From positions 2,016-66,015 of the forward strand of contig JBPOIC010000009.1 of the NCBI GenBank assembly GCA_052034865.1: 64,000 nt of DNA. The letters are read 5' to 3'. Shown here one piece after another: positions 17,286 through 54,883 of the stretch (the first letter of the stretch is position 1; every line of letters begins with the position of its first letter). A program made the translations under genes and the position numbers. Under the pieces are notes generated by a model that saw nothing but the letters and a program-made list of their open reading frames with translations, did no database searches and was not told where the DNA came from. Source of the stretch: Myxococcota bacterium (GTDB lineage Bacteria; UBA10199; JADFYH01).

Positions 17286-17813
17286 ATGCATACGATGACG
17301 GATTATATCTCCATTCATCGCAGTCATCCCGGTTATCCTGAGTGGAAAACCGATTTGCATTGGATGAGTGATGCCTATCTGAAGGCCCTGGAAGAGGAAA
17401 TTCTCACCAATCCTGCACGGTCCTTTCGCAGAATAGATCCTTCAAAAAAATATCAGGTGATTGAGCTTTTTGAAGGTCTTCTTTTACAAACAGATCAAAG
17501 CTGCTTACAGATCGCCTGTTTCAAAGACAAACGCATTGGCTATTTTCTCGGAATGATCAAAAACTGTATCGCAGAGATTCCTCCCCGTATCGGATACGTC
17601 AATGGGCTCTATATCGAACCCCAGTATCGTAACCAGGGCATTGGACAAAAACTTCTGGATCAGGGCAAGTCCTGGTTTCAGGAAAAAAAATTACCGCTTG
17701 CGGAGCTGTATCTTTCCGCAGGGAACGGGCCTGGTGAAAGATTCTGGCTGAGAAACGGCTATCAGAAAACAGAATCAGTTCTGTTATGTCCTCTTCCTCC
17801 CCCCACATCCTGA
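17286..17813 (+). CDS. GNAT-family N-acetyltransferase (candidate PseH-like acetyltransferase)
   Basis: GNAT acetyl-CoA motif region (IEPQYRNQGIGQKLLDQGKSWF). 175 aa. Embedded between flgL and motA. Confidence 0.55.
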   Translation: MHTMTDYISIHRSHPGYPEWKTDLHWMSDAYLKALEEEILTNPARSFRRIDPSKKYQVIELFEGLLLQTDQSCLQIACFKDKRIGYFLGMIKNCIAEIPPRIGYVNGLYIEPQYRNQGIGQKLLDQGKSWFQEKKLPLAELYLSAGNGPGERFWLRNGYQKTESVLLCPLPPPTS

Positions 17814-20001: not shown

Positions 20002-20730
20002 TTAAACAATCGTTTTGGTATGGCGTCCCAGAATAAAGGCCTCTGCAGCGGCGACTCCAACGGAAGCGCCCCGCCAGTTGGCCAGCATCTGAACTGCCTT
20101 GAGGGATCGGGGATGAGGCCAGGGCTTCATTTCGCTGGAATAAGCTCTCAAGGCTTTGAGCTTTAATGGAAGGGTTTTGGTGATGTCGTGAAACCACTGG
20201 GGCGTAAAAGCAGGTGCACTCTGGGCGGTTTGAGATTCCGTGCTGGAAGGAATTTCAAAAAACAAAAGGGTTTCCCAGGAAGAATTTGGCAAAGGGCGTG
20301 CTGCTGTAACGACCGCCTCGTGGGTTTTTCGGTGATCAATATTTAAATCGCCCGAATGATGGGTATAGAGAACATGCGGTTTGATTCGGTCCAGAGTCGA
20401 TTCAACAATTTTAATGATATCGAGCAGTGATACCGAATCCATCCGATTATCAGGAAGGGATTCGACTTTCAGGGAACGGACTCCCAAAATCTGATTGGCA
20501 CGGGTAGCCGCCTTAAGCAGGGCTCCCAGCTCTTTTTTTCTTGAATTCGGATTGCGTGTACGATCCCGACTGGTAATCCCTTCAGCAAGGATTAAGACAT
20601 GGACTTCATCTCCGTTCAAGGCATGATGAGCAATACTTCCTCCACAACCCAAGACTTCGTCGTCTGGATGCGCAGCCACCACCAAAACCCGCTTTGAAGA
20701 TTTCCTTTTTTTCGATAGGCTTGCTTTCAT
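20002..20730 (-). CDS. PIG-L/LmbE-family N-acetylsugar deacetylase
   Basis: Zinc-binding signature VLVVAAHPDDEVLGCGG and HxxH-type region of the LmbE family. Confidence 0.7.
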   Translation of the reverse strand: MKASLSKKRKSSKRVLVVAAHPDDEVLGCGGSIAHHALNGDEVHVLILAEGITSRDRTRNPNSRKKELGALLKAATRANQILGVRSLKVESLPDNRMDSVSLLDIIKIVESTLDRIKPHVLYTHHSGDLNIDHRKTHEAVVTAARPLPNSSWETLLFFEIPSSTESQTAQSAPAFTPQWFHDITKTLPLKLKALRAYSSEMKPWPHPRSLKAVQMLANWRGASVGVAAAEAFILGRHTKTIV

Positions 20731-20763
20731 AATTTCATCCTTATCATTGAAAAGGAGCGCCCG

Positions 20764-21495
20764 ATGAAAACCGTTCTGATCAACCAGGCCCGCATGACTT
20801 CCACCCGGCTCCCCGGGAAGGTATTGAAAGAAGTTCTGGGAAAACCGCTTCTGGAATATCAGATCGAGCGCATTCGCCGAATTCGGGAAATAGATGATTT
20901 CGTGATTGCAACAACCACCTTGCCCAGCGATGACCCGATTGTATCCCTCTGTAAAAAACTGAAGGTAAAATATTTCCGCGGATCGGAAACCGATGTTTTA
21001 AGCCGCTATGCTCAGGTTGCAGAGCGTGAACAGGCGGATTCGGTGGTTCGTGTAACTTCGGATTGTCCTTTGCTGGATCCGGAAATTGTGGATGACGTTC
21101 TCCGGTTTTTCAAAATTCATTTTCCAAAATATGCCTACGTTTCGAATGTTGATCCCAGAACCTTTCCTCGGGGGATGGACACCGAAGTCTTTACCGCTCA
21201 GGCACTTCAGGAATCTTTTCGCGAAGCAATCGATCCTTATGAAAAAGAACATGTGACTCTTTTTATTCATAGGCATCCCGAGCGTTACCTGCGCGCAGGT
21301 GTCACCGATACACAGAATCACAGTCAGCATCGCTGGACCGTCGATACGCCGGAAGATTTTCAGCTCATTGAAAAAATACTCGAAGCCCTCTATCCCAAAA
21401 ATCCTTTCTTTACTCTCAAAGATCTGCTCGCTTTATTGCAAGAGCATCCGGAATGGCAGCAGATCAACGCCCATGTGGAGCAAAAGAAATATTGA
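20764..21495 (+). CDS. pseF: Nonulosonic acid cytidylyltransferase (CMP-pseudaminic acid synthetase PseF-like, CTP_transf_3 family)
   Basis: N-terminal MKTVLINQARMTSTRLPGKVLKEVLGKPLL typical of acylneuraminate cytidylyltransferases. Adjacent to the pse genes. Confidence 0.65.
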   Translation: MKTVLINQARMTSTRLPGKVLKEVLGKPLLEYQIERIRRIREIDDFVIATTTLPSDDPIVSLCKKLKVKYFRGSETDVLSRYAQVAEREQADSVVRVTSDCPLLDPEIVDDVLRFFKIHFPKYAYVSNVDPRTFPRGMDTEVFTAQALQESFREAIDPYEKEHVTLFIHRHPERYLRAGVTDTQNHSQHRWTVDTPEDFQLIEKILEALYPKNPFFTLKDLLALLQEHPEWQQINAHVEQKKY

Positions 21496-22531
21496 ATTCT
21501 TCATGGATGAACTCTGCGAGTCGCTGACTTCCCAACCCATCGATGAGCTTTGGTCCGTTTTCTGACATCTGTCTGAGATTCGCAGAATCGGCAATCAACT
21601 CTTTCATCTTCTCGATGATTTCAGCATCTTCGATCTGATCATACATTCCTAAAAAAATACCGCAGTTTTTCTTTTGGATTTCCTCTGCCGTTCCGCGCTG
21701 GTTGGTGTGTGTTGCCAGGATCACCAGAGGTCTTCCCAGATAGAGGATCTCCTGTGCCGTCAGGCCTCCCGCTGTGATGACGATTTGGGATTTTTTGAGC
21801 AGAATGGGTAAGTCGTCAGGGTAGAGCAAAAGCTGAATGCGTGGATTTTCATCGGCCAGACGCTGAAGCTTGCCGATCGACTTGCACAGAGGTCCGGCAA
21901 TGAGCTGGATCTTTTTCAGAGAATCCAGTGCGAGAAGGAGACGCCCAACCCTTAAAGTCTGTTCTTCAGGGTCGGAGCCTCCAAAAGTCGCAGTAACTTC
22001 ATCTGCCGCCGAGGAAAAATCCGGAGAGTTTTTTATCTCGCTGGTGCTTTTTATAAAATCGTGACGCAGGGGAAAAAAGGCTGGGCCAATTTTTGAGTAA
22101 GGACGGCTGGGTCTTGGATAAATGGTTTTGGTGGCAGCGATGCTGCCATTGATGTAGCCGGTAACGGGGTAGCTGACCTTTTCTCCATCATCATCGAAAG
22201 CAAGGATGGGAATTCGTGATTGCTTGCGAATGTGTGCGTAGTAATCGCGTGAAAGACGATAAGAATCGGTGATCAAAACCGAGCCTTTTCTTTTTTTAAT
22301 CAACTGGAAAATTTCTTCTGCTTCCTCACTGCCACCATCCTGGGAAACCAGATGCTGAACAAAAAAAGGTTTTGGGGCGAGGAGATTTTCGACGCTATCG
22401 GCAGATAAGATGAATGTAATCTGAATATTTGGGGTCGATTCCCAGAGGGCTCGGGCAAAAGTATAGCAGCGTGATAAATGCCCGAATCCTACTTCTGCAT
22501 TGGCCTCTGTATGAAAAAAGATTTCCCCCAT
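21464..22531 (-). CDS. pseG: UDP-2,4-diacetamido-2,4,6-trideoxy-beta-L-altropyranose hydrolase PseG-like (GT28-C fold)
   Basis: N-terminal GFGHLSRCYTFARAL motif characteristic of PseG. C-terminal glycosyltransferase-28-like region. Last gene of the minus-strand pse operon. Confidence 0.6.
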   Translation of the reverse strand: MGEIFFHTEANAEVGFGHLSRCYTFARALWESTPNIQITFILSADSVENLLAPKPFFVQHLVSQDGGSEEAEEIFQLIKKRKGSVLITDSYRLSRDYYAHIRKQSRIPILAFDDDGEKVSYPVTGYINGSIAATKTIYPRPSRPYSKIGPAFFPLRHDFIKSTSEIKNSPDFSSAADEVTATFGGSDPEEQTLRVGRLLLALDSLKKIQLIAGPLCKSIGKLQRLADENPRIQLLLYPDDLPILLKKSQIVITAGGLTAQEILYLGRPLVILATHTNQRGTAEEIQKKNCGIFLGMYDQIEDAEIIEKMKELIADSANLRQMSENGPKLIDGLGSQRLAEFIHEEFNISFAPHGR

Positions 22532-22534
22532 AGA

Positions 22535-23230
22535 TTAATCCTTACGGCATAAAAAGTTCCAGGTCGCTAAACGAAAATTCTCGTGAGGAATAAGAGTCTC
22601 GATGATTTTGTGTTCCAGACGTTCAAAGACAAAAGAAGAAAACAGGTCCTGAAGATGAGGCTGATCTGAAAAGTGGACAGCCCCCACACTCGAAAAGGGG
22701 CCCGATGTAAAATCTTTTCGGGTATTGGAATCAAGATGGGTCTGTGCTTTTTCGAATTCTGAATGATGGGTCGAAAACCAGTCAATTCCAAGATATTTTC
22801 CACCCGGATTGAGATGTGCGTGGCAGTTTGCCAGGGTTTTACGAATTGCTGCGGTCGTGTTGTGAGTGAGAGAGGAACGATCGACAATCAGGTCAAAGGT
22901 AAAATCGAAAGGAATTCCTTCGGTAAAATCGCCCGCGACAAGCTGATTTTTAAGATCCGGAAAGCGGTCTTTCAGTTTTTCAACGATGTGAGGACTTCCT
23001 TCGATGGCGTAGTATCGAACCCCAAGATTTTTAAAAAAAGAAATATTCGCCCCTGCCCCGCAACCCAGCTCCAAAACAGTGGTCTCTGCACTCAAAGGTC
23101 TGGCAAAGCGCATCACAAAGCTCACCACCTCCGACCATGGATAAATGCTCATCTGTTGCGAGGCCTGATAAATCTGATCCCATTCTTTGGAAAAACCCAT
23201 GGAAGTCTCCTTCAGGAATTTTAAATCCAT
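22535..23230 (-). CDS. Class I SAM-dependent methyltransferase
   Basis: Motif I VLELGCGAGANISFF and downstream acidic loop. 231 aa. Confidence 0.6.
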   Translation of the reverse strand: MDLKFLKETSMGFSKEWDQIYQASQQMSIYPWSEVVSFVMRFARPLSAETTVLELGCGAGANISFFKNLGVRYYAIEGSPHIVEKLKDRFPDLKNQLVAGDFTEGIPFDFTFDLIVDRSSLTHNTTAAIRKTLANCHAHLNPGGKYLGIDWFSTHHSEFEKAQTHLDSNTRKDFTSGPFSSVGAVHFSDQPHLQDLFSSFVFERLEHKIIETLIPHENFRLATWNFLCRKD

Positions 23231-23233
23231 TGT

Positions 23234-23917
23234 TTACAACTGAATGAACGAGATATTGGGCTCGAATTCAAAACATTCGATGCGGTGCTGATTCAGACTC
23301 AGCTTTTCAAGCAGGGCCTGCGTTTCGCCCGGCCAGTCCGGATTGTTGATTTCATCGAAGGCCAAAATAGCGCCTTTGGGCATAAGAGGCAGAAAATATT
23401 TGAGAGCGGTTTGGGTAGGTTCGTAGATATCAAAATCCAGATAAAGAAGGGATACCAGAAGGTGTTTGTTTTTTTCTACATAAGCAGGGATTGTTTGATT
23501 GGCATCTCCTTTGACCAGTTCGATTTTGGGGATGTGATTGATGAAACGATTGGTATCGAATTCGGCAATTACGGCCTGCATTTCATCATAGACCGGATAG
23601 CTTTCCCCAAACATGCCTTCTTTGACCTCCGGATTCCTTCGGTCAATCGCCTGCACACTGGGAAATCCTTCAAAGGTATCAAAACCAATAATCTTTCGAT
23701 GATAATTATAGGGTTCCAGAGTTGCGGATATCTTGGCCCAGCTCATCACTCCCCCTCCCTGATGAACTCCGCATTCGACGATGCTTCCCTTGATGGGTAG
23801 CTGGCGCCTGAAAATTTCATAGTAGGCCATGAAACGGGCCAGCGTCTGCCGTCGGACATACTTGGAAAAGTTGGCAAGCTTCTTATCAGTGGGACAGGTG
23901 GATTGATCAAAAATCAT
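23234..23917 (-). CDS. TylF/MycF-family (macrocin-type) SAM-dependent O-methyltransferase
   Basis: GSIVECGVHQGGGVMSW motif typical of the TylF/Methyltransf_24 sugar O-methyltransferases. Confidence 0.55.
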   Translation of the reverse strand: MIFDQSTCPTDKKLANFSKYVRRQTLARFMAYYEIFRRQLPIKGSIVECGVHQGGGVMSWAKISATLEPYNYHRKIIGFDTFEGFPSVQAIDRRNPEVKEGMFGESYPVYDEMQAVIAEFDTNRFINHIPKIELVKGDANQTIPAYVEKNKHLLVSLLYLDFDIYEPTQTALKYFLPLMPKGAILAFDEINNPDWPGETQALLEKLSLNQHRIECFEFEPNISFIQL

Positions 23918-24651
23918 ATTGTCTCCTGTTTTAGCCAGGCTGCTGGCGCTTTTTTCAGATAACGAATATTTCCCTCAAAAAGAATTTCTGAACTGCGAGA
24001 ACCAGCATTGAACAAAAGATCCAGTGCGCTCATGTAAGGAAGAAATTCACCATGGAGCTGAGAATAGGTTGGATGATGATAGTCCTGAAAATAAACCTCG
24101 ATGTTCTTTTCATGAAACGAAGCGACATCGGCATAATCTTTTCCTTGTGCTCCAAAGATGTAATGTGTCGCTTTGAGTTGCACACACATATCCAAAACCA
24201 GATCTGATTTTTTCCCCTGAAAATTAAAATCTGAGGCCTTGACGATGGGGCGCTCCAGACCGAAGCATTTTAAAAAGTAACTCAATATTTCCAGATTAAG
24301 ATCCGAAAGAAAGATCAGATCCGTTCGGCGCAAAATCTGATCAAGAGCTGGAAAATATTGATGAAAAAAGGGCGCTTTCTGATAGGCAAGCTGGATGGAT
24401 TTTAAGTGCTTGCGCCGCCAGTCTCCAGAAATGATTTTCACCTCTGAAATGATTTTTTCAAAGTGATTTTTTGATTCGACAGGAACGGTCAGCCAGATTT
24501 CTCCAGTATTGGTTTTGATCTTGTTGCGGTTGTTAAAATCTTTCGTTTGATATTGCACGATATCAAACCAGCAGAATTGATCGGCCAGGGCGATTTTATG
24601 AATCAGTCCCAGCCACGGCAAATAAACCGGTTGATGTGCGGTAAGGATCAT
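23914..24651 (-). CDS. WbqC-like family protein (uncharacterised sugar-modification protein)
   Basis: N-terminal MILTAHQPVYLPWLGLIHKIALADQF resembles the WbqC family start (ISQPTFLPWLGYF). Translationally coupled to neighbours (4-nt overlaps). Confidence 0.45.
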   Translation of the reverse strand: MILTAHQPVYLPWLGLIHKIALADQFCWFDIVQYQTKDFNNRNKIKTNTGEIWLTVPVESKNHFEKIISEVKIISGDWRRKHLKSIQLAYQKAPFFHQYFPALDQILRRTDLIFLSDLNLEILSYFLKCFGLERPIVKASDFNFQGKKSDLVLDMCVQLKATHYIFGAQGKDYADVASFHEKNIEVYFQDYHHPTYSQLHGEFLPYMSALDLLFNAGSRSSEILFEGNIRYLKKAPAAWLKQETI

Positions 24652-25658
24652 AATTGATTCAGGGCTTTAATGATGGTTTCCACCTCACGGGGGGTGAGTG
24701 AAGGGTAAATCGGTACCGAGACCGTGGATCTTGAAAAATGCAGAGCCCTGGGAAAAGGCTTTGCCAGAAGCTCCCAATCTTCGATTGGAACAATGGCCTG
24801 AATTTTTTTTTGTTTGAGTCTCTGCAGAACCTTTTCGGGCCGGGATGTCCGGAAAACAGCCCGATATCGAACTGGAGATATTTCGATTTTCTCTTCACGT
24901 ACCCACGCAAGGTCTGTTTTCAGGTACGCTTTAAAAATCTGTTCACGTTTTTTTAAAAAACGGGGGAGTTGTTTGAGCTGGGTGCGACCGACTGCCGCCT
25001 GCAAATCTGTCATCTGAAAATTGAAACGGGGTCTGTCTTTTCGTTGCATATCAAAAAGCCGGTAGTCGCGTATCCATTCAATAGGAGCTTTGTGACGCGA
25101 AACCACTGCCCCTCCCTGTCCTCCGCTCGTCATCAATTTCGTCGCATAAAATGAAAAAACTCCCAGATCTCCCTGAAGCCCCGCATGTACTCCGTTTACC
25201 TTTGCCCCGAGGGCCTGAGCGCAGTCCTCTATCACGGAAATTCCATTCAGTTCGGACAACTCCGTTGGAATTCCAAAAAGGTGAGGCACAATTGCAATCT
25301 CAGGAGATTTCTTTTCAAGCATTGCCAGATCAAGATTGGGTTGTGATTCAGCAATGTCCAGGAACACTTCTTTTCCTTGAGCCATGCGCACGGCATGGCG
25401 AAGCGCAGAACAGGCATAAACGGGCATTCCAATTTTTTTATGCGAAGCATTTAAGGCTAAAAGTGACAGATAAAGCGCTGCAGTTCCGCTTGAAACTGCA
25501 ACGGCATGTCCTCTTGGAATTTTCAAAAAATCGCACAAGTCATTCTCAAAGCCCTCCACTTCATTTCCCTGGGCCAGCCATCCCGAGCGCAGAACCCGAC
25601 AGGCGGCCCTTTCTTCGTAAATTCCAATTGTAAGACGGTTATGAGGAATCAGATTCAA
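24648..25658 (-). CDS. DegT/DnrJ/EryC1/StrS-family PLP-dependent sugar aminotransferase (second copy, short form)
   Basis: AVSSGTAALYLSLLAL and the Lys-containing FSFYATKLMTSGGQGG motif. 336 aa. Confidence 0.65.
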   Translation of the reverse strand: MNLIPHNRLTIGIYEERAACRVLRSGWLAQGNEVEGFENDLCDFLKIPRGHAVAVSSGTAALYLSLLALNASHKKIGMPVYACSALRHAVRMAQGKEVFLDIAESQPNLDLAMLEKKSPEIAIVPHLFGIPTELSELNGISVIEDCAQALGAKVNGVHAGLQGDLGVFSFYATKLMTSGGQGGAVVSRHKAPIEWIRDYRLFDMQRKDRPRFNFQMTDLQAAVGRTQLKQLPRFLKKREQIFKAYLKTDLAWVREEKIEISPVRYRAVFRTSRPEKVLQRLKQKKIQAIVPIEDWELLAKPFPRALHFSRSTVSVPIYPSLTPREVETIIKALNQL

Positions 25659-26125
25659 ATTTTCCCCTTGGATTTTTTTTTGCTTAATATTTGCTTTCGG
25701 TAATAGCCCGGTTTGAGCTGCATGGGATTTCCGATGACGAGAGAGTAAGGAGGAATGCGCACACCTTCGACAACGGTTCCTGCAGCCACGACACTGTGAT
25801 GACCGATGTGTGCCCCGCCTTTAATGACCGAATGGGATCCGACAAAAACAGATTTTCCCAGCACGATCGACTTGCGATCAATTTTATTCTGAAGTCCCAC
25901 ACATTTTTTGTGAGAGTCGGCACAGTTGATCGAGACGAATGAAGCGATATCGCACCCTTCTCCAATGACCACTTTGGACAGGTGTGCATTCACCTCTGAC
26001 ATTCCCCCAATATAAACATTTTTGCCGATGCGGGGTTTTCCATGGATCCAAACCAAAGGATGAAAACGGTTGGATGGAAAATCCAGATGCTTTTCAAATA
26101 GCTTCCTAAATTGCCTGGATGTCAT
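25655..26125 (-). CDS. Left-handed beta-helix (hexapeptide-repeat) sugar N-acetyltransferase (PglD/NeuD-like)
   Basis: Tandem hexapeptide repeats (IGKNVYIGGMSEVNAHLSKVVIGEGCDIASFVSI...VFVGSHSVIKGGAHIGHHSVVAAGTVV). Start chosen at the ATG overlapping the pseI stop (ATGA). Confidence 0.65.
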   Translation of the reverse strand: MTSRQFRKLFEKHLDFPSNRFHPLVWIHGKPRIGKNVYIGGMSEVNAHLSKVVIGEGCDIASFVSINCADSHKKCVGLQNKIDRKSIVLGKSVFVGSHSVIKGGAHIGHHSVVAAGTVVEGVRIPPYSLVIGNPMQLKPGYYRKQILSKKKSKGKI

Positions 26126-27174
26126 CCGAAATCTCCCCATGTCAGTGTCTGTCCTTTTGCGATGGGCTTTTGGGCCTGAAGACCGAGAATTTTTTCAAGC
26201 AGAGACGGAGGCAGCCCGCTTCCCGGGCGTCTTAAGGCCAGGTTTTCTTCTGAAAGCGCTTCTCCTGGCGGGATGTTTTTTAAGGCAACGATACTGCGTC
26301 GGGCCAGAATACGCATTTTTTCTTCTTCAGCGGTGGGTCGAATCTGCGCACATCCTAACATGCGAAAGGCCGTGCGAATGGAGTGTACCCAGTTTTTCAA
26401 TCCCTGTGGATCTTCAGAAAAGGCATGATCCGGACCTCGCAGGTCATGGCTTAGGGTAAAATGTTTTTCAAAAAAACATCCTCCCAAACTCACAGCGAGA
26501 GAAGAGGCCAATGGCCCTTCGGTATGATCAGAAAATCCGATGGGGATTTGAGGATAGGTCTGCTGGAGGGTTTTGATCTTAAGCAGATTCACATCCTGAA
26601 TGGGTGTTGGATATTGAGACGTACAGGCAAGAAGCAAAGTTGGATATCCTCGAAAAGTGCCAATCGCCTCGAGGGCCTGGTCGATTTCCGCAAGGGTTGC
26701 CATCCCGGAAGAAATAATCAGGGGAAGAGAGGTTTTTGCATAGTGTTTGAGCAGGGGAGTGTGGATCAAATCATCGGATCCAATCTTGATCGCACTGACG
26801 CCGACTTCGAGAAGGATTTTTAAATCACTGGGATTTTGGGGCGTGGAAAGGAAGACCAGTTTTTTTTCTTCGCAGCGTTTTTTAAGTTGAGGCCAGGCGG
26901 ATAAGGGCAATTCGCATCGCTTGAACATCGCATGCATGGATTCAGTGATTTCTTTTCCCTGGGAATGATAAGTCCACTTCAGATTTTGATCGGAAAGAAT
27001 TTCATCGGCCTGAAATGTCTGAAACTTTACGGCATCGACACCCGCATCATGAGCAATCTCGATCATCTCCAGGGCCTTTTCAATCTCTCCATTGTGATTG
27101 ATTCCGACCTCCGCGACGATAAAGGGAGGAAGCCCGTGCCCAATCTGCCGATCCTCAATTTTAACCCAACTCAT
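26122..27174 (-). CDS. pseI: N-acetylneuraminate-synthase-family enzyme (pseudaminic acid synthase PseI/NeuB-like)
   Basis: IGHGLPPFIVAEVGINHNGEIEKALEMIEIAHDAGVDAVKFQTF NeuB motif plus a C-terminal SAF domain. Start at the internal ATG (MSWVKIEDRQIG). Confidence 0.8.
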   Translation of the reverse strand: MSWVKIEDRQIGHGLPPFIVAEVGINHNGEIEKALEMIEIAHDAGVDAVKFQTFQADEILSDQNLKWTYHSQGKEITESMHAMFKRCELPLSAWPQLKKRCEEKKLVFLSTPQNPSDLKILLEVGVSAIKIGSDDLIHTPLLKHYAKTSLPLIISSGMATLAEIDQALEAIGTFRGYPTLLLACTSQYPTPIQDVNLLKIKTLQQTYPQIPIGFSDHTEGPLASSLAVSLGGCFFEKHFTLSHDLRGPDHAFSEDPQGLKNWVHSIRTAFRMLGCAQIRPTAEEEKMRILARRSIVALKNIPPGEALSEENLALRRPGSGLPPSLLEKILGLQAQKPIAKGQTLTWGDFG

Positions 27175-28378
27175 AAAGACCGATCCTTTCTTTTCTCGCA
27201 GAGAGGTTGACCGCAACATCTTCGTAGGGAGCCAGTAAGTCCCGCAGAAGTTCAAGGAAACGATCTTGATCTTTTTGATTTAAACCTGGGTAGAGGGGAA
27301 TGGAGAGGGCTGTCCGAAAATAATTTTCTGCCTGAGGAAAATGCTGGGGCGAAACCGAGAAGTGCTGCTGGTAGTAGGGATGTCGATAAATCGGAATATA
27401 ATGCAATTGGCAGAAAAATCCTGCCGCCCTCAATTTTTGAAAAATCAAATCGCGCGGCACCTGCTCTTCAAATTTGAGAATGCAAAGATGATGGGAAGAC
27501 AGGTGAGGTTCTGAAGGAAGCAACAGTTTTACCAGAGACTGATTTTTAAGCTGTTCCTGATAATATAGAAACTGCTCGCGTCTTGCGGCGATAAACTGAT
27601 CGAGTTTTTTAATCTGTGAAAGTCCGAGCGCTGACTGAACTTCGGTCAGTCGGTAATTCCAGCCCAGATCTTCCATTTCGTAATACCAGCCTGGACGGCC
27701 TTCTTCGGGCTGGGGATGATAAACTCCATGATTTCTGAAGGATTTTAATTTTCGGTAATAGCCTTCGTCGTTGGTGGTTACCATTCCTCCTTCGAGCGTG
27801 GTGATGGATTTGACAGGATGAAAACTGAAAACCGTCATATCACTATATTCGCAGGAGCCGATTTTGGTTTCCTGTCCCGTCTTTGGATCTTTGATGCCTG
27901 CTCCGAGGGCATGGCAGCCATCTTCGATAATTTTCAGATGATAGCGTTGCGCAAGCTCGGCCAGTTTGGGCATGTTGACGGGTGCTCCTGCAAAATGAAC
28001 CGGCAGAATGACCCGCGTTTTTTCATTGATGCCGGATTCTAGCCTATCCACATCCAACAGCGGCAACCCTTCCTGAACATCCGAAAAACGCGGCTTGGCT
28101 CCAACGTATAGAAGACAATTGGCGGTTGCCAGAAAAGAGATCGGAGTTGTGATCCCTTCTTCATTTTTTTTAAGACCCAGGACGTGACAGGCCCCATGGA
28201 GAGCCGCAGTTCCATTTGAAAAAGCGATCGCAAACCGCGCTCCACAATAGTTCGCCACCTGTCGCTCAAATTCTGCAAGCAAAGGTCCCTGGGTGAGCAG
28301 ACGGCCTCTTAAGGCTTCGGTAACCGCTCGAATATCATCATCTTCAATGAGTTGCCGACTGTAGGGGATATCCTGCAT
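27161..28378 (-). CDS. pseC: UDP-4-amino-4,6-dideoxy-N-acetyl-beta-L-altrosamine transaminase PseC (DegT family)
   Basis: N-terminal MQDIPYSRQLIEDDDIRAVTEALRGRLLTQGP matches the PseC start. PLP-Lys region FSFHPVKSITTLEGG. I rejected the longer track ORF in favour of this internal start. Confidence 0.8.
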   Translation of the reverse strand: MQDIPYSRQLIEDDDIRAVTEALRGRLLTQGPLLAEFERQVANYCGARFAIAFSNGTAALHGACHVLGLKKNEEGITTPISFLATANCLLYVGAKPRFSDVQEGLPLLDVDRLESGINEKTRVILPVHFAGAPVNMPKLAELAQRYHLKIIEDGCHALGAGIKDPKTGQETKIGSCEYSDMTVFSFHPVKSITTLEGGMVTTNDEGYYRKLKSFRNHGVYHPQPEEGRPGWYYEMEDLGWNYRLTEVQSALGLSQIKKLDQFIAARREQFLYYQEQLKNQSLVKLLLPSEPHLSSHHLCILKFEEQVPRDLIFQKLRAAGFFCQLHYIPIYRHPYYQQHFSVSPQHFPQAENYFRTALSIPLYPGLNQKDQDRFLELLRDLLAPYEDVAVNLSARKERIGLYELG

Positions 28379-29435
28379 TTGGGATCCGTTCAGTAAGGGT
28401 GGATGGAGAAGAGCCGTAGGTGTGAGAGTCGTGTGGATCAAAAAGAAGATTTTCTTTTTTCAGCAGGGCTTCGATCTCGGGTACTGAAAGCCAGATTGAG
28501 TTGGTATTACTGGCATAGGTGAAATCCTCATCGCATTTTATGGCATGATAGCCATTGTCTGCGACGTAATGGTTTTGATCCCACCATTGAAAAGGAGGTT
28601 GGATAATGTAGAAATCTGAAAATTCGAGTGCGTTGCGGGCATCTTCCTGCGGAATCATAACCTCATGGAGTTTTTCACCAGGTCGAATACCGGTGGTTTC
28701 CCACTTGCATTCTGGGGCAATCGCTTTAGCCACATCTACAATATAAGCACTGGGAATTTTTGGAACAAAAATCTCACCTCCCTGCATAAGCCCGAGGCAC
28801 CGGATTACAAAGTCGACTCCATCGGTAAGTGTAATCAGAAAGCGGGTCATCCGAAGATCGGTAAGAGGTAGGATACCGCTGTTTCGTTTTCTTAAGAAAA
28901 GGGGAACGACACTGCCTCGGCTTCCCACCACGTTCCCGTAGCGTACGACCGAAAAACGTGTCGGACGACCTCCAGCGAGATGATTGGCAGAGATAAAAAG
29001 CTTGTCGGAGCATAGTTTTGTCGCTCCGTAAAGATTGATGGGATTGGCAGCTTTATCTGTCGAGAGGGCAATCACTTTCGAGACGCCGCAATCGATCGCT
29101 GCAGAGATGATATTATATGCGCCGATAATATTCGTTCGGACGGCTTCAAAAGGATTGTATTCAATCGCTGGAACCTGCTTGAGGGCCGCTGCATGGATGA
29201 CGATATCAACTCCATACAGGGCGCGTCGCAATCGATCGAGATCCCGAACATCCCCTATAAAATAGCGCAGGCAGGGATGGTCGAAGCGCTCATGCATCAT
29301 CGACTGCTTTAATTCATCCCGGCTGAAAATGATAATGCGCTGGGGTTCAAACCGTCTCAGAATCGTTTCGACACATTTTTGTCCAAAAGATCCCGTCCCA
29401 CCCGTGATCAGAATTGTTTTCCCATTCAGATTCAT
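28344..29435 (-). CDS. pseB: UDP-N-acetylglucosamine 4,6-dehydratase (inverting) PseB/FlaA1
   Basis: MNLNGKTILITGGTGSFGQKCV Rossmann motif, YGATKLCSDKLF catalytic YxxxK. 363 aa. First gene of the operon. Confidence 0.9.
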   Translation of the reverse strand: MNLNGKTILITGGTGSFGQKCVETILRRFEPQRIIIFSRDELKQSMMHERFDHPCLRYFIGDVRDLDRLRRALYGVDIVIHAAALKQVPAIEYNPFEAVRTNIIGAYNIISAAIDCGVSKVIALSTDKAANPINLYGATKLCSDKLFISANHLAGGRPTRFSVVRYGNVVGSRGSVVPLFLRKRNSGILPLTDLRMTRFLITLTDGVDFVIRCLGLMQGGEIFVPKIPSAYIVDVAKAIAPECKWETTGIRPGEKLHEVMIPQEDARNALEFSDFYIIQPPFQWWDQNHYVADNGYHAIKCDEDFTYASNTNSIWLSVPEIEALLKKENLLFDPHDSHTYGSSPSTLTERIPNAGYPLQSATH

Positions 29436-29747
29436 AAAATCTCTCCTTATTGAAGGTGTGCGATTCGGGTTTGCTCTATATTAAGCAAGACAGATGCCAG
29501 CTTTTCGAAAGAAACATGAAAGGGCGTTAACGATTTGAATCTGTGCATTAAATCCGCATTTTTAGCTTTTTAACTGTGTTTCACCTCAAGGTTGGATGGG
29601 GAAAATTTTTCCCATTTACCTACTTCTCCACACGGGTCTTTCCTGCCTGAAGATAAGGTAATATTTTCCTGAATGAACTTCCCTCCTGTTGCTTCCTTTT
29701 TTGTTAACTTGCCGGAATTTATGTGCCTTTCAAAAAAACTCTCCTGC

Positions 29748-50530: not shown

Positions 50531-52066
50531 ATGAAGGATTTTGCCAAAAAACGTCCCACGCTTTCGGTGTGCCTGATTGCCCGCAATGAAGAAAGGCTGC
50601 TGCCAGCCTGTCTTCAAAGTGTATCGGGCTGGGCCGAAGAAATCATTGTCGTCGATACGGGCTCGACGGATCGCACGCCACAAATCGCAAAAGAATCAGG
50701 AGCTAAGGTTTTTGCATTTGGCTGGCAGAATGATTTTGCAGCGGCACGCAATGAATCACTTTCGAAAGCCACGCAGGAATGGATTCTGGTTCTGGATGCC
50801 GATGAAGTGGTGTCTGCATCCGCAAAAGCACAGATCGATGACCTTCTGACTCATTCCAGTGCCCTGCTGTTTTATCTGATCCAGACAACGTACGCGGAAG
50901 AATCGGCCACATTTGGCTGGATTCCCAATTATCTGAAAGATCCTGAAGCGCAGGGATATGCCGGTTTTATCGAATCGCCGCTGGTACGTCTTTTCAGGAA
51001 TATTCCCCAGATCCGGTTTCAGGGACGAATTCACGAGCATGCTTTCCATGAAGATCGAAAGATTCTTCCAGCAAAAACCCCGATTCGAATTCATCATTAC
51101 GGAAAGTATATTCCCGCTCCTCTCAATGAGAAAAAAAATCTCCTCTATCTCGAACTGGGTCGAAAAAAATGTCTGGAGAATTCGAAAGATGCCCATGCCT
51201 TTTACGAACTGGGAGTTCAATGCTGGAGCATGGAGCGGATGCAGGAAGCCAAAGAGAGTCTGGAGCAGGCGCTTAAGATCGATCCGAAATATTCCAAATG
51301 TCTTATCGCGATGGCGATCGTATTGACGGTTGAAAAAAAATATCAGGAAGCGATTGGGATGTATGCACGGCTTCTCGAAATAGAGCCGCAGAATATACTT
51401 CCTTATCTCTATCTGCCGCCTCTCCTGATGGAAATCGGCAATCTCTCTCTAGCGGAAGAGATTCTGAAAGCAGGCGAATTCCATGCGGCGTTTCATCCCT
51501 GTTTTCATATCAATCAGGGTGTCGTGAGAAAGCAGATGGGAAATTTTAGAGGTGCGATTGCTTCTTTTAATGAAGCCTTAAGACTCAATCCCAACGAATC
51601 ACTGGCGTGGCTCAATCAGGGAATGGCGTGGATGGATCTTCGTGAATGGGATCTGGCAAAAGAATCGCTGGATAAGGCCAGAACTTTTTCAAGACAGCGT
51701 TTGCTGGCCACCGAGAAACTCGCGGAATGGCATTTTTTGCAGAAGGGGTCGGATCCGTCTCATCTGGAAAAAGGTCTGGAGTGTCTCAAGGAGGTCTATC
51801 GTGAAATTCCAAAAGATGCCTCGAATCTTCTGAATATGGGAATTTTTTTGATTCAGCTTAAACGAAAAGAGGAAGCTCGAAGCTATCTCAATCAGATTCA
51901 TTCTCTGGAAGGATTGAAATCAGAAGAGAAAGAAAGACTTTATTTTTGTGCTACAGCCACAGGAGCAGAAAAGGTTTTGCCCCTGTTGGGACCCTGGGAA
52001 AAGCCGCAGAAAACAGTTGCCGTCAAAGAAAAGGAGCCAGTTCATGTCTCAACTTACATCGCCTGA
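50531..52066 (+). CDS. Family-2 glycosyltransferase fused to TPR repeats
   Basis: GT2 N-terminal domain (LSVCLIARNEERLLPACLQS...IIVVDTGSTDRT...LVLDADEVV) followed by a TPR array. Starts 8 nt after fliA. Confidence 0.7.
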   Translation: MKDFAKKRPTLSVCLIARNEERLLPACLQSVSGWAEEIIVVDTGSTDRTPQIAKESGAKVFAFGWQNDFAAARNESLSKATQEWILVLDADEVVSASAKAQIDDLLTHSSALLFYLIQTTYAEESATFGWIPNYLKDPEAQGYAGFIESPLVRLFRNIPQIRFQGRIHEHAFHEDRKILPAKTPIRIHHYGKYIPAPLNEKKNLLYLELGRKKCLENSKDAHAFYELGVQCWSMERMQEAKESLEQALKIDPKYSKCLIAMAIVLTVEKKYQEAIGMYARLLEIEPQNILPYLYLPPLLMEIGNLSLAEEILKAGEFHAAFHPCFHINQGVVRKQMGNFRGAIASFNEALRLNPNESLAWLNQGMAWMDLREWDLAKESLDKARTFSRQRLLATEKLAEWHFLQKGSDPSHLEKGLECLKEVYREIPKDASNLLNMGIFLIQLKRKEEARSYLNQIHSLEGLKSEEKERLYFCATATGAEKVLPLLGPWEKPQKTVAVKEKEPVHVSTYIA

Positions 52067-52955
52067 GGATCAATTCAATCCAGCCGTTTATGGGTTTAAA
52101 AAAATATTCATTACCGATACCGCACCGGAAGTCTGGAGGGAAAAGCGAGTCGCCGACGGAAAGAAAATTGGCGTCTGGAATGGAGGATTCAAAATCCATT
52201 TCAATCCTCTCAATCTTCAGCCAAAGGATTTTGCTGCCTTGGGAATAGAAGAGACGGAAAATCTATTTTCTCCTCATTCTTTAAAATTAAATAATCCCTG
52301 GGAAGCCATGGAGCTTTTCATGGAAGGACCGCTCGATGAATTTCAGATCGCAAATTACTTTATCGAATTTCCGGTCGCCGCGAGAGGACTGCTTTCCTAC
52401 ATTCGCCTCGCTGCTAAGGCCCAGGAAGGATCGCTTCCTTTGCCCACATCCTGTCCTGAAACCCTGGAAGCTTCCGAATCCAATCCTTTCTTATGGAATC
52501 TGACAGGTAAATGTCTGGCTATTTGCGGGAAAGTTTCAGAAGCAGGGAAGATTTTTGAGAAAATTGCCGAGCGGTATCCCGAATTCAGTGAGTCCTACGG
52601 AAATCTGGGGGCCCTGCTCTGGAAGTTTGGCAAGCGGCGTGAGGCCTTCGTGATGTTTACGGAATCTCTGGGCCGCAATCCTTTCAGCAGCTCGGCGCAA
52701 CTTAACTTTTTTGAGGCAGGGCGTGAGCTTCAGGAATTCTCCGCGATGACGACCGTTCTTCAGAAAATCATTCATCAGTATCCTTATTGCCTGGATCTCT
52801 ATTCATTGCTGGCAGTCTGCTTCTATCAGATTCGTGAAGTGGAGAGGGCCAAATCGGTTTTAAATGATCTGCTTCGGGAGTCCCCGGAAGATTCCGAAGG
52901 GAAACTTCTGCTTCATCGCATCACCCAGTCTGCAGAATGGAGAGCGCTTCTATGA
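52044..52955 (+). CDS. Hypothetical protein with a TPR-like C-terminal region
   Basis: Internal ATG with an upstream AGGAG. About 303 aa. No catalytic motif recognised. Confidence 0.4.
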   Translation: MSQLTSPEDQFNPAVYGFKKIFITDTAPEVWREKRVADGKKIGVWNGGFKIHFNPLNLQPKDFAALGIEETENLFSPHSLKLNNPWEAMELFMEGPLDEFQIANYFIEFPVAARGLLSYIRLAAKAQEGSLPLPTSCPETLEASESNPFLWNLTGKCLAICGKVSEAGKIFEKIAERYPEFSESYGNLGALLWKFGKRREAFVMFTESLGRNPFSSSAQLNFFEAGRELQEFSAMTTVLQKIIHQYPYCLDLYSLLAVCFYQIREVERAKSVLNDLLRESPEDSEGKLLLHRITQSAEWRALL

Positions 52956-54883
52956 CTTCATTCTTCGAAGAGAATCTGGCCACTCTTATCGAAACTTTTC
53001 CATCGCTCGGGATGAAGGTTCAGCAGGTGGATGCGGGAACGTATCCACTGGTTCATATCAAGGAAAACAACTCCTGGGACCTTTTGCATGACGGAAAATT
53101 TCTCTACGGGAAAAACGCTCCTGGTTTTATCCGCAGTGAAATGGATGCGGTGAATCTCAGTTTCCCAAAGCTCGTAATTTTTTACAGTACAGGACTGGGG
53201 TATACGGTTCAGGAATTTTTCAGGAACCACGCAACGCATTCGGAGAAAATCTTCATCATTGAAAAGTCCATTGTCCTTTTCAGAAGATCGCTTGAGATTT
53301 TCGATTGGCGTCCCATTTTGAAAGATTCCAGGGTTTGTCTTCTGGTGGGGCTGACCTTGCCTCAGCTGAAAGAAGAACTATTGAAACAGACCTATGCGTC
53401 AGAAGTCATAGTCAACATCAAGACCCTCACGCCCATTTGTGATTCCAAAGCGATGGAATTGGAGGAGGGATCTTACTATCAGTCGGCCGCAGAGCTTTTC
53501 AAACAGGCTGTGGCCTTTTCAGAAAGCCTGCCACGAGGACACCCGGAAGACTCCTATCAGGGGTTCATGAATACCGTACGCAATTTGCCGAATGCCCAAG
53601 GGGTCCCGCATTTTGAATCCTGCACACATCTGTTTGCCGGTTTTCCGGGGATTGTCGTTTCAACAGGTCCTTCTCTGGATCGTGCACTCCCTTTCTTAAA
53701 GGAAGTAAAAGACCGCGCGGTGATTGCCTGCGCCGATTCCAACCTTAAAATACTTCTGAAGAACGGCATTCTTCCTCATTTGACTGGGTGCGTGGAGCGT
53801 GTTCCGGAAACACGACATTTTTTCGATCAGATTCCTTCCATGAAAAAAACCTGGATGGTGACCAACCCGCTGATTTGGCCGGGGAGTTATGAAAGTTATC
53901 CTGGACCCAAAATCCATTTAATGAAGGCCATTTCCCAAATTCAGTGGTTTTGGCCCGAAGCGCCCTATTATCGAACTGGCCATTCGGTGGCTCATAATCT
54001 TTTCATGATTCTCAGACTCATGGGTTGTTCCCCCATACTTTTTGTTGGGCAGGATTTGGCTTTCGATCGTTTTTCAGTGCGCAGTCATGCGGATGGAGTT
54101 CCGGAGATCATCTCGAAAATTGGAAAGAAAGATTATGAAGACTGTGAGAGCGAGGTAAAAAAAGGAGAAAAGAAAAAAAATTATCTCGCCGAAGGAAATA
54201 ATGGAGAGCCCATCCTTACGACCGAGGCCTGGAATCAGTTCCGCACTCACTTCGGCCTGATCATTCAGGCGGAAAATGTGCCCTGCTACAATCTGATTTA
54301 TCCGGAATACGGAGCCAGAATAGAAAACATGACACGGCTGGATCCTCCGGAGCTGATTCGATTTTTGGGTGAATCGCGTCCTGTTGCTGAAATCATTCAG
54401 AAGGAATTTTCCTCCAGACCTGTGCTTAATCCTGCCGAATATCAAAAGAAAATGGGAGAAAGGATTTCGAAGGCCATCGATTATCTCGAGCGCTACCAAC
54501 AGATTACCCTCGAGGTTCTGGATTCTGTCAGCTGGTTTCGGCATGAAAATGAAATCTTTGAATCGGGGCCCAGACTCTACCAACCCCTGCTTAATCGTCT
54601 TGAAAAAATCGTAAATGAAATTGAAGAGAACTTTTCTACTTCAGATTCAGATGATTTTTATGGCCACTTCCTTTTGGCACAGGTCCAGCATCGAACTACC
54701 GAGATCAATCAGCTCGCCCTCGGTTTCCTCAAACTCAATCCCGATTCCAAACAGCGTCTTTATGGCCAGCTAAACTGTGTCAATGAATGGTTCAGTGTGG
54801 TGTTCTATTGGGCTTCCCGAATGAAAAATTTTCTGGAGCGCTCATTCATCCGGGCATCTGATCCTTCGATTTTAAATTCATGA
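52952..54883 (+). CDS. maf: Motility accessory factor Maf (DUF115/MptE-like; putative flagellin nonulosonic-acid transferase), paralog 1
   Basis: Central DUF115-like core (FAGFPGIVVSTGPSLDRALPFLKEVKDRAVIACADSNLKILLKNGILPHLTGCVER) and a large helical C-terminal region. About 640 aa. Confidence 0.6.
   Translation: MTSFFEENLATLIETFPSLGMKVQQVDAGTYPLVHIKENNSWDLLHDGKFLYGKNAPGFIRSEMDAVNLSFPKLVIFYSTGLGYTVQEFFRNHATHSEKIFIIEKSIVLFRRSLEIFDWRPILKDSRVCLLVGLTLPQLKEELLKQTYASEVIVNIKTLTPICDSKAMELEEGSYYQSAAELFKQAVAFSESLPRGHPEDSYQGFMNTVRNLPNAQGVPHFESCTHLFAGFPGIVVSTGPSLDRALPFLKEVKDRAVIACADSNLKILLKNGILPHLTGCVERVPETRHFFDQIPSMKKTWMVTNPLIWPGSYESYPGPKIHLMKAISQIQWFWPEAPYYRTGHSVAHNLFMILRLMGCSPILFVGQDLAFDRFSVRSHADGVPEIISKIGKKDYEDCESEVKKGEKKKNYLAEGNNGEPILTTEAWNQFRTHFGLIIQAENVPCYNLIYPEYGARIENMTRLDPPELIRFLGESRPVAEIIQKEFSSRPVLNPAEYQKKMGERISKAIDYLERYQQITLEVLDSVSWFRHENEIFESGPRLYQPLLNRLEKIVNEIEENFSTSDSDDFYGHFLLAQVQHRTTEINQLALGFLKLNPDSKQRLYGQLNCVNEWFSVVFYWASRMKNFLERSFIRASDPSILNS

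Follow-up and report, generated by a model that had tools for sequence, protein, structure and literature searches.

Between two flagellar blocks, at positions 20002-29435 of the 64,000-nucleotide stretch of DNA analysed here (the window), lie eleven genes that raise two questions: which sugar do they make, and to what is it attached? The first-pass annotation read them as an expanded pseudaminic acid operon, with extra tailoring enzymes, whose product decorates flagellin. We consider it reasonably probable that this is a resident island for flagellin glycosylation, inserted between motB and flgB, that makes a CMP-nonulosonate of the pseudaminic lineage using a dedicated synthase clade and its accompanying module, with transfer by Maf proteins. 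Here, a widespread module built around the WbqC family would be carried in an ordinary flagellin glycosylation island.

Layout of the island

Profile searches found all eleven ORFs present and intact, with the family signatures previously assigned to them. However, only nine, and not all eleven as first described, are coupled on the minus strand. This operon runs from pseB (28344-29435) down to the PseG-like gene (21464-22531) in the order already proposed, i.e., pseB, pseC, NeuB-like synthase, left-handed beta-helix (LbH) acyltransferase, short DegT aminotransferase (DegT2), WbqC, TylF-type methyltransferase, class I methyltransferase and PseG-like hydrolase. In that order the eight junctions are overlaps of 35, 14, 4, 4, 4 and 4 nt followed by two gaps of 3 nt each, and the "3-4 nt gaps or ATGA overlaps" of the earlier description therefore fit six junctions, the first two overlaps being longer. 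The plus-strand cytidylyltransferase gene had been called divergent, which is true only with respect to the PIG-L gene (start 33 nt away); with the PseG-like gene it is convergent, and their 3' ends overlap by 32 nt.

The placement between two flagellar blocks was borne out, with flgL, a GNAT gene, motA and motB on one side and flgB, flgC, fliE, fliF and fliG on the other. Compared with the relative L087, in which motB is followed directly by flgB, the island is an insertion, while in the relative L088 this position holds Maf and glycosyltransferase genes. Approximately 50 nt 5' of the pseB ATG there is a sigma-54-type promoter-like site (TGGCATCTGTCTTGC; 29485..29499, minus strand) that agrees with the consensus at 9/10 positions and has both the GG and GC dinucleotides intact. 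Four such sites occur in the window against 3.4 expected, i.e., no excess over chance, and a promoter role would be suggested by position and orientation alone. The window also encodes a sigma-54 activator (3809-5299).

The WbqC cassette and its accessory enzymes

A colinear cassette (LbH, short DegT, WbqC, TylF, methyltransferase and PIG-L, plus NeuB) was found in dozens of loci, both metagenomic and genomic, whose GC contents span 0.30-0.63, with homologue identities of 38-73% (51-60% for the synthase, 60-73% for TylF). The supposedly expanded gene set is nothing special to this locus, being a conserved cassette in many unrelated bacteria. Fifteen loci of the close WbqC subfamily were fully sampled, i.e., had 4 kb or more of sequence to either side of WbqC; NeuB, DegT2 and the methyltransferase were present in all 15, PIG-L in 14, LbH (after NeuB) in 13 and TylF, an optional member, in six. 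The best explanation is that the accessory genes (PIG-L, WbqC, short DegT and class I methyltransferase, joined in some loci only by LbH and TylF) are a conserved mobile module travelling with the cassette synthase clade.

DegT2 (24648..25658, minus strand, TTG start) is a PLP aminotransferase matching PF01041 at 181 bits and the PseC model at only 140 bits. Its Schiff-base Lys and the Asp of the "IED" motif are conserved, it has no close relative in the PDB, and the operon contains no oxidoreductase able to supply its keto substrate, a point against the pathway that we favour. The WbqC-family protein (23914..24651, minus; PF08889, 243.7 bits) belongs to a family of 10,059 clusters at 50% identity (E<=1e-10) with neither a sequence match in the PDB nor a solved structure. 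Against the PDB, its AF2 model (pLDDT 89) finds no fold neighbour at E<0.1; the highest-probability Foldseek matches, all weak and far from significant (E>0.1, TM<=0.33), are nucleotidyltransferase or class I tRNA-synthetase-type folds. The PIG-L/LmbE-family de-N-acetylase (20002..20730, minus; PF02585, 91.7 bits) has an HPDDE motif and BshB1 and BshB2 as top NCBIfam matches (57 bits), and its gene adjoins WbqC even in loci that lack NeuB. The TylF-type enzyme (23234..23917, minus; PF05711, 38.8 bits) is probably a sugar O-methyltransferase, while the class I SAM methyltransferase (22535..23230, minus; Methyltransf_25/12/11 in profile searches) has a weak top NCBIfam match to daptide amine N-methyltransferase (30.8 bits).

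In the synthesis of mycothiol (MshB/MshC/MshD) and bacillithiol (BshB/BshC), a PIG-L deacetylase acts first and a ligase of class I tRNA-synthetase-like fold acts next. Three features recall this logic: the PIG-L protein matches BshB1/BshB2 best and has its gene paired with that of WbqC, WbqC shows fold likeness, very weak, only to nucleotidyltransferases and class I synthetases, and the LbH acetyltransferase could, by analogy, cap a newly added amine. However, this is an analogy only: neither MshC nor BshC shares detectable sequence similarity or significant structural similarity with WbqC, and a nucleotide-sugar or nonulosonate would take the place of GlcN-inositol or GlcN-malate as substrate. 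Our best guess is that the module would remove an inherited N-acetyl group, re-derivatise the freed amine and methylate the product, with WbqC in the role of a ligase-like enzyme that uses ATP or a nucleotide.

These enzymes may instead serve a second product, although we regard this as rather unlikely. The Pse core would then yield plain Pse5Ac7Ac, and DegT2, WbqC, PIG-L, LbH and the methyltransferases a separate modified amino sugar, e.g., an N-acylated or methylated 4-amino-4,6-dideoxyhexose drawn from the PseB keto intermediate and added to flagellin by a GT2-TPR or GT4 glycosyltransferase. WbqC, PIG-L and DegT do occur together without NeuB in a Nitrospinia MAG and on B. cereus plasmids, and GT2-TPR and GT4 genes lie beside the Maf genes of the window. 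An O-antigen also counted in favour of two products matches that of E. coli O121, which contains an N-acetylglycyl-Qui4N hexose and not a nonulosonate. The flagellar island of Dickeya zeae, with WbqC and DegT alongside methyltransferases and no NeuB, was counted on the same side (PMC9650423). Against two products, the module directly adjoins, in 15/15 fully sampled loci, a dedicated NeuB clade that occurs only with the module, and in the window module and synthase genes are linked by translational coupling.

Core enzymes and the stereochemistry of the product

Both early enzymes score above their NCBIfam equivalog cut-offs and the early pathway is therefore Pse-type, as first annotated. PseB, the inverting UDP-GlcNAc 4,6-dehydratase (minus strand; TIGR03589, 504 bits, cut-off 407.75), has a C-terminal extension of ~40 aa where its gene overlaps pseC, and PseC (27161..28378, minus) is the UDP-4-amino-4,6-dideoxy-L-AltNAc aminotransferase (TIGR03588, 448.8 bits, cut-off 423.5). 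The LegB and LegC models fall far below their own cut-offs (57 bits against 475 for PseB; 212 against 420 for PseC).

The late enzymes depart further from the pseudaminic norm. The NeuB-family nonulosonate synthase (26122..27174, minus), previously labelled pseI, scores higher on the NeuB_NnaB model (345.7 bits, cut-off 399.65) than on PseI (269.1 bits, cut-off 340.25), below cut-off in both, and is slightly nearer to NeuC-linked NeuB types (38% identity versus 33%). In the phylogeny it falls in its own cassette clade outside PseI (200/200 bootstraps), the deep placement of which is not settled by the tree, and the label of a canonical PseI does not fit it. The PseG-like UDP-sugar hydrolase (GT28-like, minus strand) is divergent, with 126 bits on TIGR03590 (cut-off 153.55) and only 21-26% identity to PseG proteins from other cassette loci; in the PDB it is matched best by C. 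jejuni PseG (3hbm), in keeping with the PseG-type hydrolase first proposed. The label pseF did not survive, since the cytidylyltransferase (20764..21495, plus; CTP_transf_3, PF02348, 99.4 bits) is SpsF-like and reaches 22.6 bits on the PseF model against a cut-off of 205.7. Its top PDB match is 6oew, it is 52% identical to its homologue in the cassette locus L041, and we infer that it would act as a CMP-nonulosonate synthetase. Legionaminic acid transfer in B. subtilis requires SpsF (PMC7439481).

Profile searches returned neither a PseF equivalog among the island proteins nor a PseH equivalog in the nearby GNAT. The small LbH acyltransferase (25655..26125, minus; Hexapep domain) had been typed as PglD/NeuD, yet it lacks the PglD/NeuD N-domain and only its beta-helix part matches that model (43.8 bits, cut-off 160.8); among PDB entries it comes closest to O-acetyltransferase-like or gamma-carbonic-anhydrase-like proteins. 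As the sole acetyltransferase in the L052 and L062 clusters, it is a candidate PseH replacement or tailoring acetyltransferase. The generic GNAT between flgL and motA (17286..17813, plus), with no match to PseH (TIGR03585), is kept 5' of motA in L087, which has no pse island there; as a PseH substitute it is possible but unproven.

Given a non-PseI synthase, a sub-cut-off PseG-like hydrolase and no PseF or PseH equivalogs, the stereochemistry of the product is not fixed by the genes. That the nonulosonate is another stereoisomer or a different sugar acid, with late enzymes nearer to the Sps/NeuB side, nevertheless seems unlikely to us. The synthase scores and clade and the SpsF-like cytidylyltransferase favour it, as does SpsE being the best PDB match of the synthase (193 bits; NeuB 178, PseI 160). 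SpsG we take to be a PseG-like enzyme. SpsE acts with SpsG and SpsF in the legionaminic acid pathway of B. subtilis (SpsM/C/D/G/E/F; PMC7439481), which resembles the present one in the subfamilies of its late enzymes and in UDP-linked intermediates. However, that pathway begins with a retaining SpsM/PglF-type dehydratase and serves the spore crust, whereas here inverting PseB followed by PseC would set the L-altro configuration early and the probable target is flagellin. Furthermore, 0/11 island genes match the NeuC-type 2-epimerase family in profile searches, and the unsettled deep placement weakens the argument from the tree. Related loci with PseB and PseC have the cassette-type NeuB as their sole synthase, and it is accompanied there by a canonical PseF (355.7 bits against a cut-off of 205.7) and the Pse-associated methylase TIGR03587; on a Mariluticola plasmid it accompanies PGAP-named pseB, pseC, pseF and pseG.

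For the pseudaminic-lineage pathway that we favour, the gene families lead us to infer the following order. UDP-GlcNAc would be dehydrated and inverted by PseB and given a 4-amino group by PseC, and the amine capped by an acyltransferase, the in-operon LbH being likelier than the nearby GNAT. The PseG-like hydrolase would release the hexose, the cassette-clade synthase would condense it with PEP, and the SpsF-like enzyme would form a CMP-activated 5,7-diamino-3,5,7,9-tetradeoxynonulosonate.

Flagellin as the acceptor

The flagellin gene was correctly placed outside the window by the first-pass annotation; it lies just upstream, beside fliD, and encodes a central domain with 33% Ser/Thr. Two putative flagellin nonulosonate transferases of Maf type are present in the same flagellar supercluster. 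The first (52937..54883, plus) combines MptE-like and Maf N-terminal domains (PF01973, 115 bits; PF20157) and scores 111 bits on a PseD-type model, under its cut-off; the second (55034..56923, plus) is 29% identical to it. A GT2 + TPR glycosyltransferase (50531..52066, plus) is encoded 3' of fliA and a GT4 glycosyltransferase (56830..58182, plus) behind the Maf pair. With two Maf genes and a Ser/Thr-rich flagellin nearby, the earlier claim of a flagellin glycan stands: flagellin is well supported as the target, to which the Maf proteins would transfer the sugar.

The cassette sugar is not intrinsically a flagellar glycan, because none of 80 metagenomic loci matched the flagellar or Maf proteins of the window and annotated cassette loci mostly lie beside polysaccharide genes (Wzy, GT4 or ABC-transporter). 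Those same observations would suit a sugar destined for a surface polysaccharide (an LPS O-antigen, a capsule or an S-layer glycan), the genes for which lie between flagellar operons only incidentally, a reading that we think very unlikely given the Maf pair, GT2-TPR gene and fliA in one supercluster, the Ser/Thr-rich flagellin, a motB-flgB junction that is a variable glycosylation site in relatives, the lack of Wzy, Wzx or ABC exporter among the scanned window ORFs, and L041, which alone of the 80 loci matched the GT2-TPR protein and in which the cassette adjoins both a flagellin gene and the GT2-TPR gene.

Among known flagellin systems, the PseB/C/H/G/I/F and Maf pathway of Campylobacter jejuni and Helicobacter pylori shares the inverting 4,6-dehydratase and 4-aminotransferase at equivalog level, a PseG-type hydrolase, a NeuB-family synthase, a CTP_transf_3 cytidylyltransferase, and Maf-family proteins with a Ser/Thr-rich flagellin nearby. 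The operon described here differs in having LbH in place of a PseH-family GNAT, a synthase outside the PseI clade, an SpsF-like cytidylyltransferase, a divergent, sub-cut-off PseG and five or six extra conserved enzymes. The group I polar flagellin glycosylation islands of Aeromonas are small pse islands beside flagellar regions that also have deacetylase, methyltransferase, aminotransferase and reductase genes and a Maf transferase; the WbqC, short DegT and LbH cassette is not mentioned in that description (PMC7874193), and the organism here is from an uncultured lineage with closest named relatives labelled Deltaproteobacteria. Aeromonas-like features do appear in the cassette loci L004, L017 and L051, in which an aldo/keto reductase occurs together with a fusion of cytidylyltransferase and class III aminotransferase.

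Gene content of the island and its canonical enzymes

Eleven intact open reading frames with clear family signatures lie at 20002-29435, bordered on one side by flgL, a GNAT gene, motA and motB and on the other by flgB, flgC, fliE, fliF and fliG. The first-pass annotation described these as eleven coupled minus-strand genes. Nine do run head to tail on the minus strand, but the cytidylyltransferase gene is on the plus strand with the PIG-L gene beyond it, giving an arrangement of nine plus two. The run consists of pseB (28344-29435), pseC (27161-28378), a NeuB-family synthase gene (26122-27174), a gene for a small hexapeptide-repeat (left-handed beta-helix, LbH) acyltransferase (25655-26125), a short DegT aminotransferase gene with a TTG start (DegT2; 24648-25658), and genes for a WbqC-family protein (23914-24651), a TylF-type methyltransferase (23234-23917), a class I methyltransferase (22535-23230) and a PseG-like protein (21464-22531). 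Read in this order, the junctions are overlaps of 35, 14, 4, 4, 4 and 4 nt followed by two 3-nt gaps. The tail of PseB continues for about 40 residues past the end of the PseB model (28344-28466), reaching 35 nt into pseC, and could be either the result of a lost stop codon or a genuine extension.

Between the class I methyltransferase gene and PIG-L (20002-20730, minus strand) lie pseG and the cytidylyltransferase gene (20764-21495, plus strand). The 3' ends of these two genes overlap convergently by 32 nt (21464-21495), while the divergent starts of the cytidylyltransferase and PIG-L genes are separated by 33 nt (20731-20763). In the metagenomic locus L041, whose synthase and cytidylyltransferase are the closest ones, PIG-L and the cytidylyltransferase gene share an orientation with 3 nt between them, a difference that points to a local inversion at this point in the window. 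With the cytidylyltransferase gene antisense between pseG and PIG-L, any promoter of its own or of PIG-L has to be inside coding sequence, unless PIG-L is transcribed by read-through from the operon.

The first two enzymes are those of pseudaminic acid (Pse) biosynthesis, in agreement with the first-pass annotation, and both were recovered at NCBIfam equivalog level. PseB, the inverting UDP-GlcNAc 4,6-dehydratase/5-epimerase, scored 504.4 bits on TIGR03589 (cut-off 407.75), and PseC, the UDP-4-amino-4,6-dideoxy-L-AltNAc aminotransferase, 448.8 bits on TIGR03588 (cut-off 423.5). The enzyme set of a legionaminic or sialic acid pathway was not recovered: scores were far under the cut-offs for the LegB model (57 bits, cut-off 475) and the LegC family (212 bits, cut-off 420), and none of the eleven island genes matched a NeuC-type 2-epimerase family. 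The PseG-like protein scored 126 bits on TIGR03590 (cut-off 153.55), and its best PDB match, over the full length, was Campylobacter jejuni PseG (E=3e-10).

Other labels had to be revised. The gene previously called pseF encodes an SpsF-like CTP_transf_3 protein that reached only 22.6 bits on the CMP-pseudaminic acid synthetase model TIGR03584 (cut-off 205.7). No GNAT is encoded in the operon, where the LbH acyltransferase is found instead. The separate GNAT gene reported between flgL and motA is indeed present (17286-17813), but its product has no match to TIGR03585 (PseH) even at E<=10. Nor is the proposed PglD/NeuD type supported for the LbH protein: its match to the NeuD/PglD model is confined to the beta-helix half, and the protein resembles small O-acetyltransferases and gamma-carbonic-anhydrase-like proteins. 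Its suggested role as a substitute for PseH is favoured by two cassette loci without a GNAT (L052 and L062), in which LbH is the sole acetyltransferase, but a third (L058) carries both LbH and a PseH-like GNAT.

The recurrent cassette and its NeuB-family synthase

Close homologues of WbqC (60-70% identity) are very numerous. Three randomly taken contexts, from a Mucilaginibacter contig, a gammaproteobacterial MAG and a 3.8-Mb contig, contained the same colinear set of NeuB, LbH, short DegT, WbqC, TylF, methyltransferase and PIG-L genes, with LbH missing from L003. The window proteins are 38-73% identical to their homologues in these contexts (L002, L003 and L004), and the window holds a cassette-clade NeuB, short DegT, WbqC, class I methyltransferase and PIG-L in colinear order, making it a member of the same group. 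Searching genome contigs with WbqC alone gave just two loci, both distant. A metagenome scan yielded 80 further loci. Co-occurrence was counted only over the 15 loci in which WbqC has 4 kb or more of sequence to either side; NeuB, DegT2 and the methyltransferase were present in all 15, PIG-L in 14, LbH in 13 and TylF in six. The GC content of loci longer than 5 kb was 0.30-0.63, and across bacteria of this range a six- or seven-gene module including WbqC accompanies nonulosonate synthesis.

Approximately 20 longer loci preserve a full order of PseB, PseC, cytidylyltransferase, PseG, NeuB, LbH, DegT2, (TylF), WbqC, methyltransferase and PIG-L. As cytidylyltransferase they have a canonical PseF or else an SpsF-like domain, in certain cases fused with a class III aminotransferase. 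The flagellar and Maf (putative flagellin nonulosonate transferase) proteins of the window had no match in any of the 80 metagenomic loci, and its glycosyltransferase with TPR (GT2-TPR) was matched only in L041. Several annotated cassette loci outside the metagenome scan have Wzy, GT4 or ABC-transporter genes around them. The literature searches turned up no description of the module. Seven cassette loci (L047, L048, L054, L064, L066, L073 and L074) have extra downstream genes matching the window NeuB at 28-41% identity, and in L064, L066, L073 and L074 such genes also match the window PseB and PseC at 28-41% identity; these seven bacteria may have two nonulosonate pathways side by side.

The synthase of the island was initially named pseI, a name that its scores do not uphold: it reached 269 bits on TIGR03586 (cut-off 340), less than the 345.7 bits on NeuB_NnaB (cut-off 399.65), and neither cut-off was attained. 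Against PDB chains it scored 193 bits with SpsE, 178 with meningococcal NeuB and 160 with a PseI. A neighbour-joining tree (200 bootstraps) was built from the cassette homologues, five plasmid PseI linked to pseG or pseH and four NeuB-family synthases linked to neuC. The cassette homologues, with a mean identity of 33% to PseI and of 38% to the NeuB types linked to neuC, formed their own clade (200/200) outside the PseI clade (itself 200/200); the tree gave no stable deeper placement for the cassette clade. The first-pass annotation had made its Pse assignment depend on the clades of the synthase, PseB and PseC; the synthase falls outside PseI, whereas PseB and PseC remain of the Pse type.

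Context nevertheless assigns the synthase a role. Longer cassette loci were confirmed to carry a true PseF (355.7 bits) as well as the Pse-associated methylase TIGR03587, and on a plasmid of Mariluticola halotolerans LMO-2 (NZ_CP090961.1) PGAP names pseB, pseC, pseF and pseG while calling the synthase only an "N-acetylneuraminate synthase family protein". The cassette clade therefore does the job of PseI by context, but is not PseI by sequence. Judged by these family and clade assignments, PseH, PseI and PseF, half of the six canonical enzymes, have given way here to non-orthologous or paralogous proteins.

Flagellar-adjacent Pse islands with deacetylase, methyltransferase and aminotransferase extras have already been described in Aeromonas (PMC7874193). 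The locus is a variant of that kind, but differs in its built-in, widespread and undescribed module and in the replacement of PseH, PseI and PseF. Overall, the first-pass description of the island is confirmed in part, and its interpretation is upheld in part.

WbqC and the possible chemistry of the accessory module

Neither the single WbqC sequence nor a profile matched any sequence in the PDB. Its AF2 model is confident (pLDDT 89, pTM 0.87), but Foldseek found no PDB neighbour with E<0.1, and the only hits of non-trivial probability, all short of that threshold, were to nucleotidyltransferase or class I synthetase-type folds. A profile search covering 1.84 billion representatives placed 10,059 50%-identity clusters in the family at E<=1e-10. 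Among the top 150 representatives there were no informative fusions, and nearly all consisted of a single domain, at about 235 aa. One of the 150, a 494-aa protein (P0247), stood alone in having a clear multi-copy architecture: two of its stretches match the WbqC profile, a pattern that suggests a tandem duplication of the domain. Papers mentioning WbqC describe it as functionally uncharacterised, and our literature search found no functional study of WbqC, LmbE or PIG-L with nonulosonic or pseudaminic acid, nor of triamino nonulosonates.

The PLP lysine and aspartate of DegT2 are kept, therefore it is probably an active aminotransferase. The operon encodes no oxidoreductase that could give it a keto substrate, and a function as a C8 aminase resembling that of Kdo8N synthesis (KdnA/KdnB) was set aside because no dehydrogenase is present in the operon.

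With low confidence, we favour a scheme of de-N-acetylation followed by re-derivatisation. The accessory module would strip an N-acetyl group and then re-derivatise the freed amine; the new group would be capped by LbH or the class I methyltransferase, and TylF could contribute an optional O-methyl. This scheme draws on the adjacency of PIG-L and WbqC, which adjoin even in loci without NeuB, on the bacillithiol deacetylases, which are the named proteins that PIG-L matches best, on the fold hits of WbqC, and on an O-antigen that matches that of Escherichia coli O121, which bears an N-acetylglycyl amino sugar. A broader reading, tentative and on balance doubtful, is that PIG-L, WbqC, the short DegT and the methyltransferase form a deacetylate/re-derivatise module in which WbqC represents a new nucleotide-dependent amide ligase-like family, that its products are aminoacylated and/or N-methylated nonulosonic acids, and that the accompanying NeuB clade is a further synthase class tuned to the modified substrate. 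The logic of the PIG-L and WbqC pair would be analogous to that of MshB/MshC.

The locus alone adds little to the picture of flagellin glycosylation, and its value is as a pointer to the cassette and to WbqC. Once worked out, the product of the module would account for some of the nonulosonate diversity that is left unassigned in environmental surveys and give an activity to the large WbqC family (>10,000 50%-identity clusters). As Mariluticola halotolerans is cultured and has a related cluster on its plasmid, the question is experimentally tractable.

Flagellin as the likely acceptor, and the flagellar surroundings

Pse-type flagellin glycosylation is required for filament assembly in several pathogens and shapes the recognition of flagella. 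A flagellin glycan, the product first proposed for this island, remains likely given a pair of Maf proteins, a nearby Ser/Thr-rich flagellin, a variable motB-flgB junction and a flagellin gene beside the cassette in L041. In the window, fliA is followed downstream by genes for a GT2-TPR protein, a TPR protein, a pair of Maf-type proteins and a GT4. Both Maf proteins (52937-54883 and 55034-56923) combine MptE-like and Maf N-domains, are 29% identical to each other and have PseD-type matches below cut-off. Their genes are linked to flagellar and nonulosonate biosynthesis genes, with the island between motAB and flgBC-fliEFG, which is the gene linkage expected of a Maf-dependent flagellin glycosylation island. 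From established Pse enzymology we infer a core route in which PseB would convert UDP-GlcNAc, PseC would put on the 4-amino group, and the amine would then be N-acylated; the UDP-sugar would be hydrolysed by the PseG-like enzyme, condensed with PEP, activated with CMP and transferred to flagellin by the Maf proteins.

The window begins within fliD, followed by fliS, and the flagellin gene is outside it as had been anticipated, a 485-aa flagellin being encoded immediately upstream on the source contig. Its central domain is 33% Ser/Thr and is a candidate O-glycosylation target. In L041 the cassette adjoins both a flagellin gene and a GT2-TPR gene. In the 673-aa flagellin of that locus (886-2907, minus strand), an insertion of FG-GAP repeats separates the conserved helical domains of the N- and C-terminus, and a 1205-aa neighbour protein has no Pfam match.

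On FliI, which gives the organism only a rough placement, the closest named matches are Deltaproteobacteria-labelled MAGs (64% identity). In the relative GCA_040960315.1 (67% FliI identity) flgB directly follows motB, and in another relative, CP064976.1, Maf and glycosyltransferase genes lie upstream of flgB. These differing gene sets indicate that the motB-flgB junction is a variable glycosylation site in the lineage and, on gene content, a hot spot for the exchange of glycosylation genes. Around motAB/flgB in relatives of the source organism, L087 (1-2428) carries a GNAT gene and a 711-aa glycosyltransferase gene, and L088 (908-5327) a Maf gene and two GT1/GT4-type glycosyltransferase genes. 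Recent horizontal acquisition of the island was rejected, since its GC, GC3 and codon usage match those of the flanks and there are no border repeats.

A sigma-54-like site, TGGCATCTGTCTTGC, is located about 50 nt upstream of pseB. Other sigma-54-type sites lie upstream of an SLT transglycosylase gene (8457-8471, minus strand; a perfect TGGCAC-N5-TTGC), flgF (8773-8788, plus strand), flgB (29748-29763, plus strand) and the second Maf gene (54945-54960, plus strand), and a sigma-54 activator gene is found at 3809-5299. The placement of these sites is only suggestive, because the motif is not enriched above chance across the window. The search for sigma-28 sites gave none that was convincing, and the frequency of sigma-70-like sites in the region did not exceed that in shuffles.

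Towards the far end of the window, a 1629-aa open reading frame (59095-63984, minus strand) encodes an amidase domain close to the C-terminus together with a weakly RelA/SpoT-like region. It adjoins a superoxide dismutase gene, and no connection with the flagellar genes is evident. Two further minus-strand open reading frames lie between the gene for the sigma-54 activator and those for the flagellar rod. The product of one (5542-7815) is 757 aa long and gave just a weak TPR match, and that of the other (2170-3705), at 511 aa, has a receiver domain in its centre.
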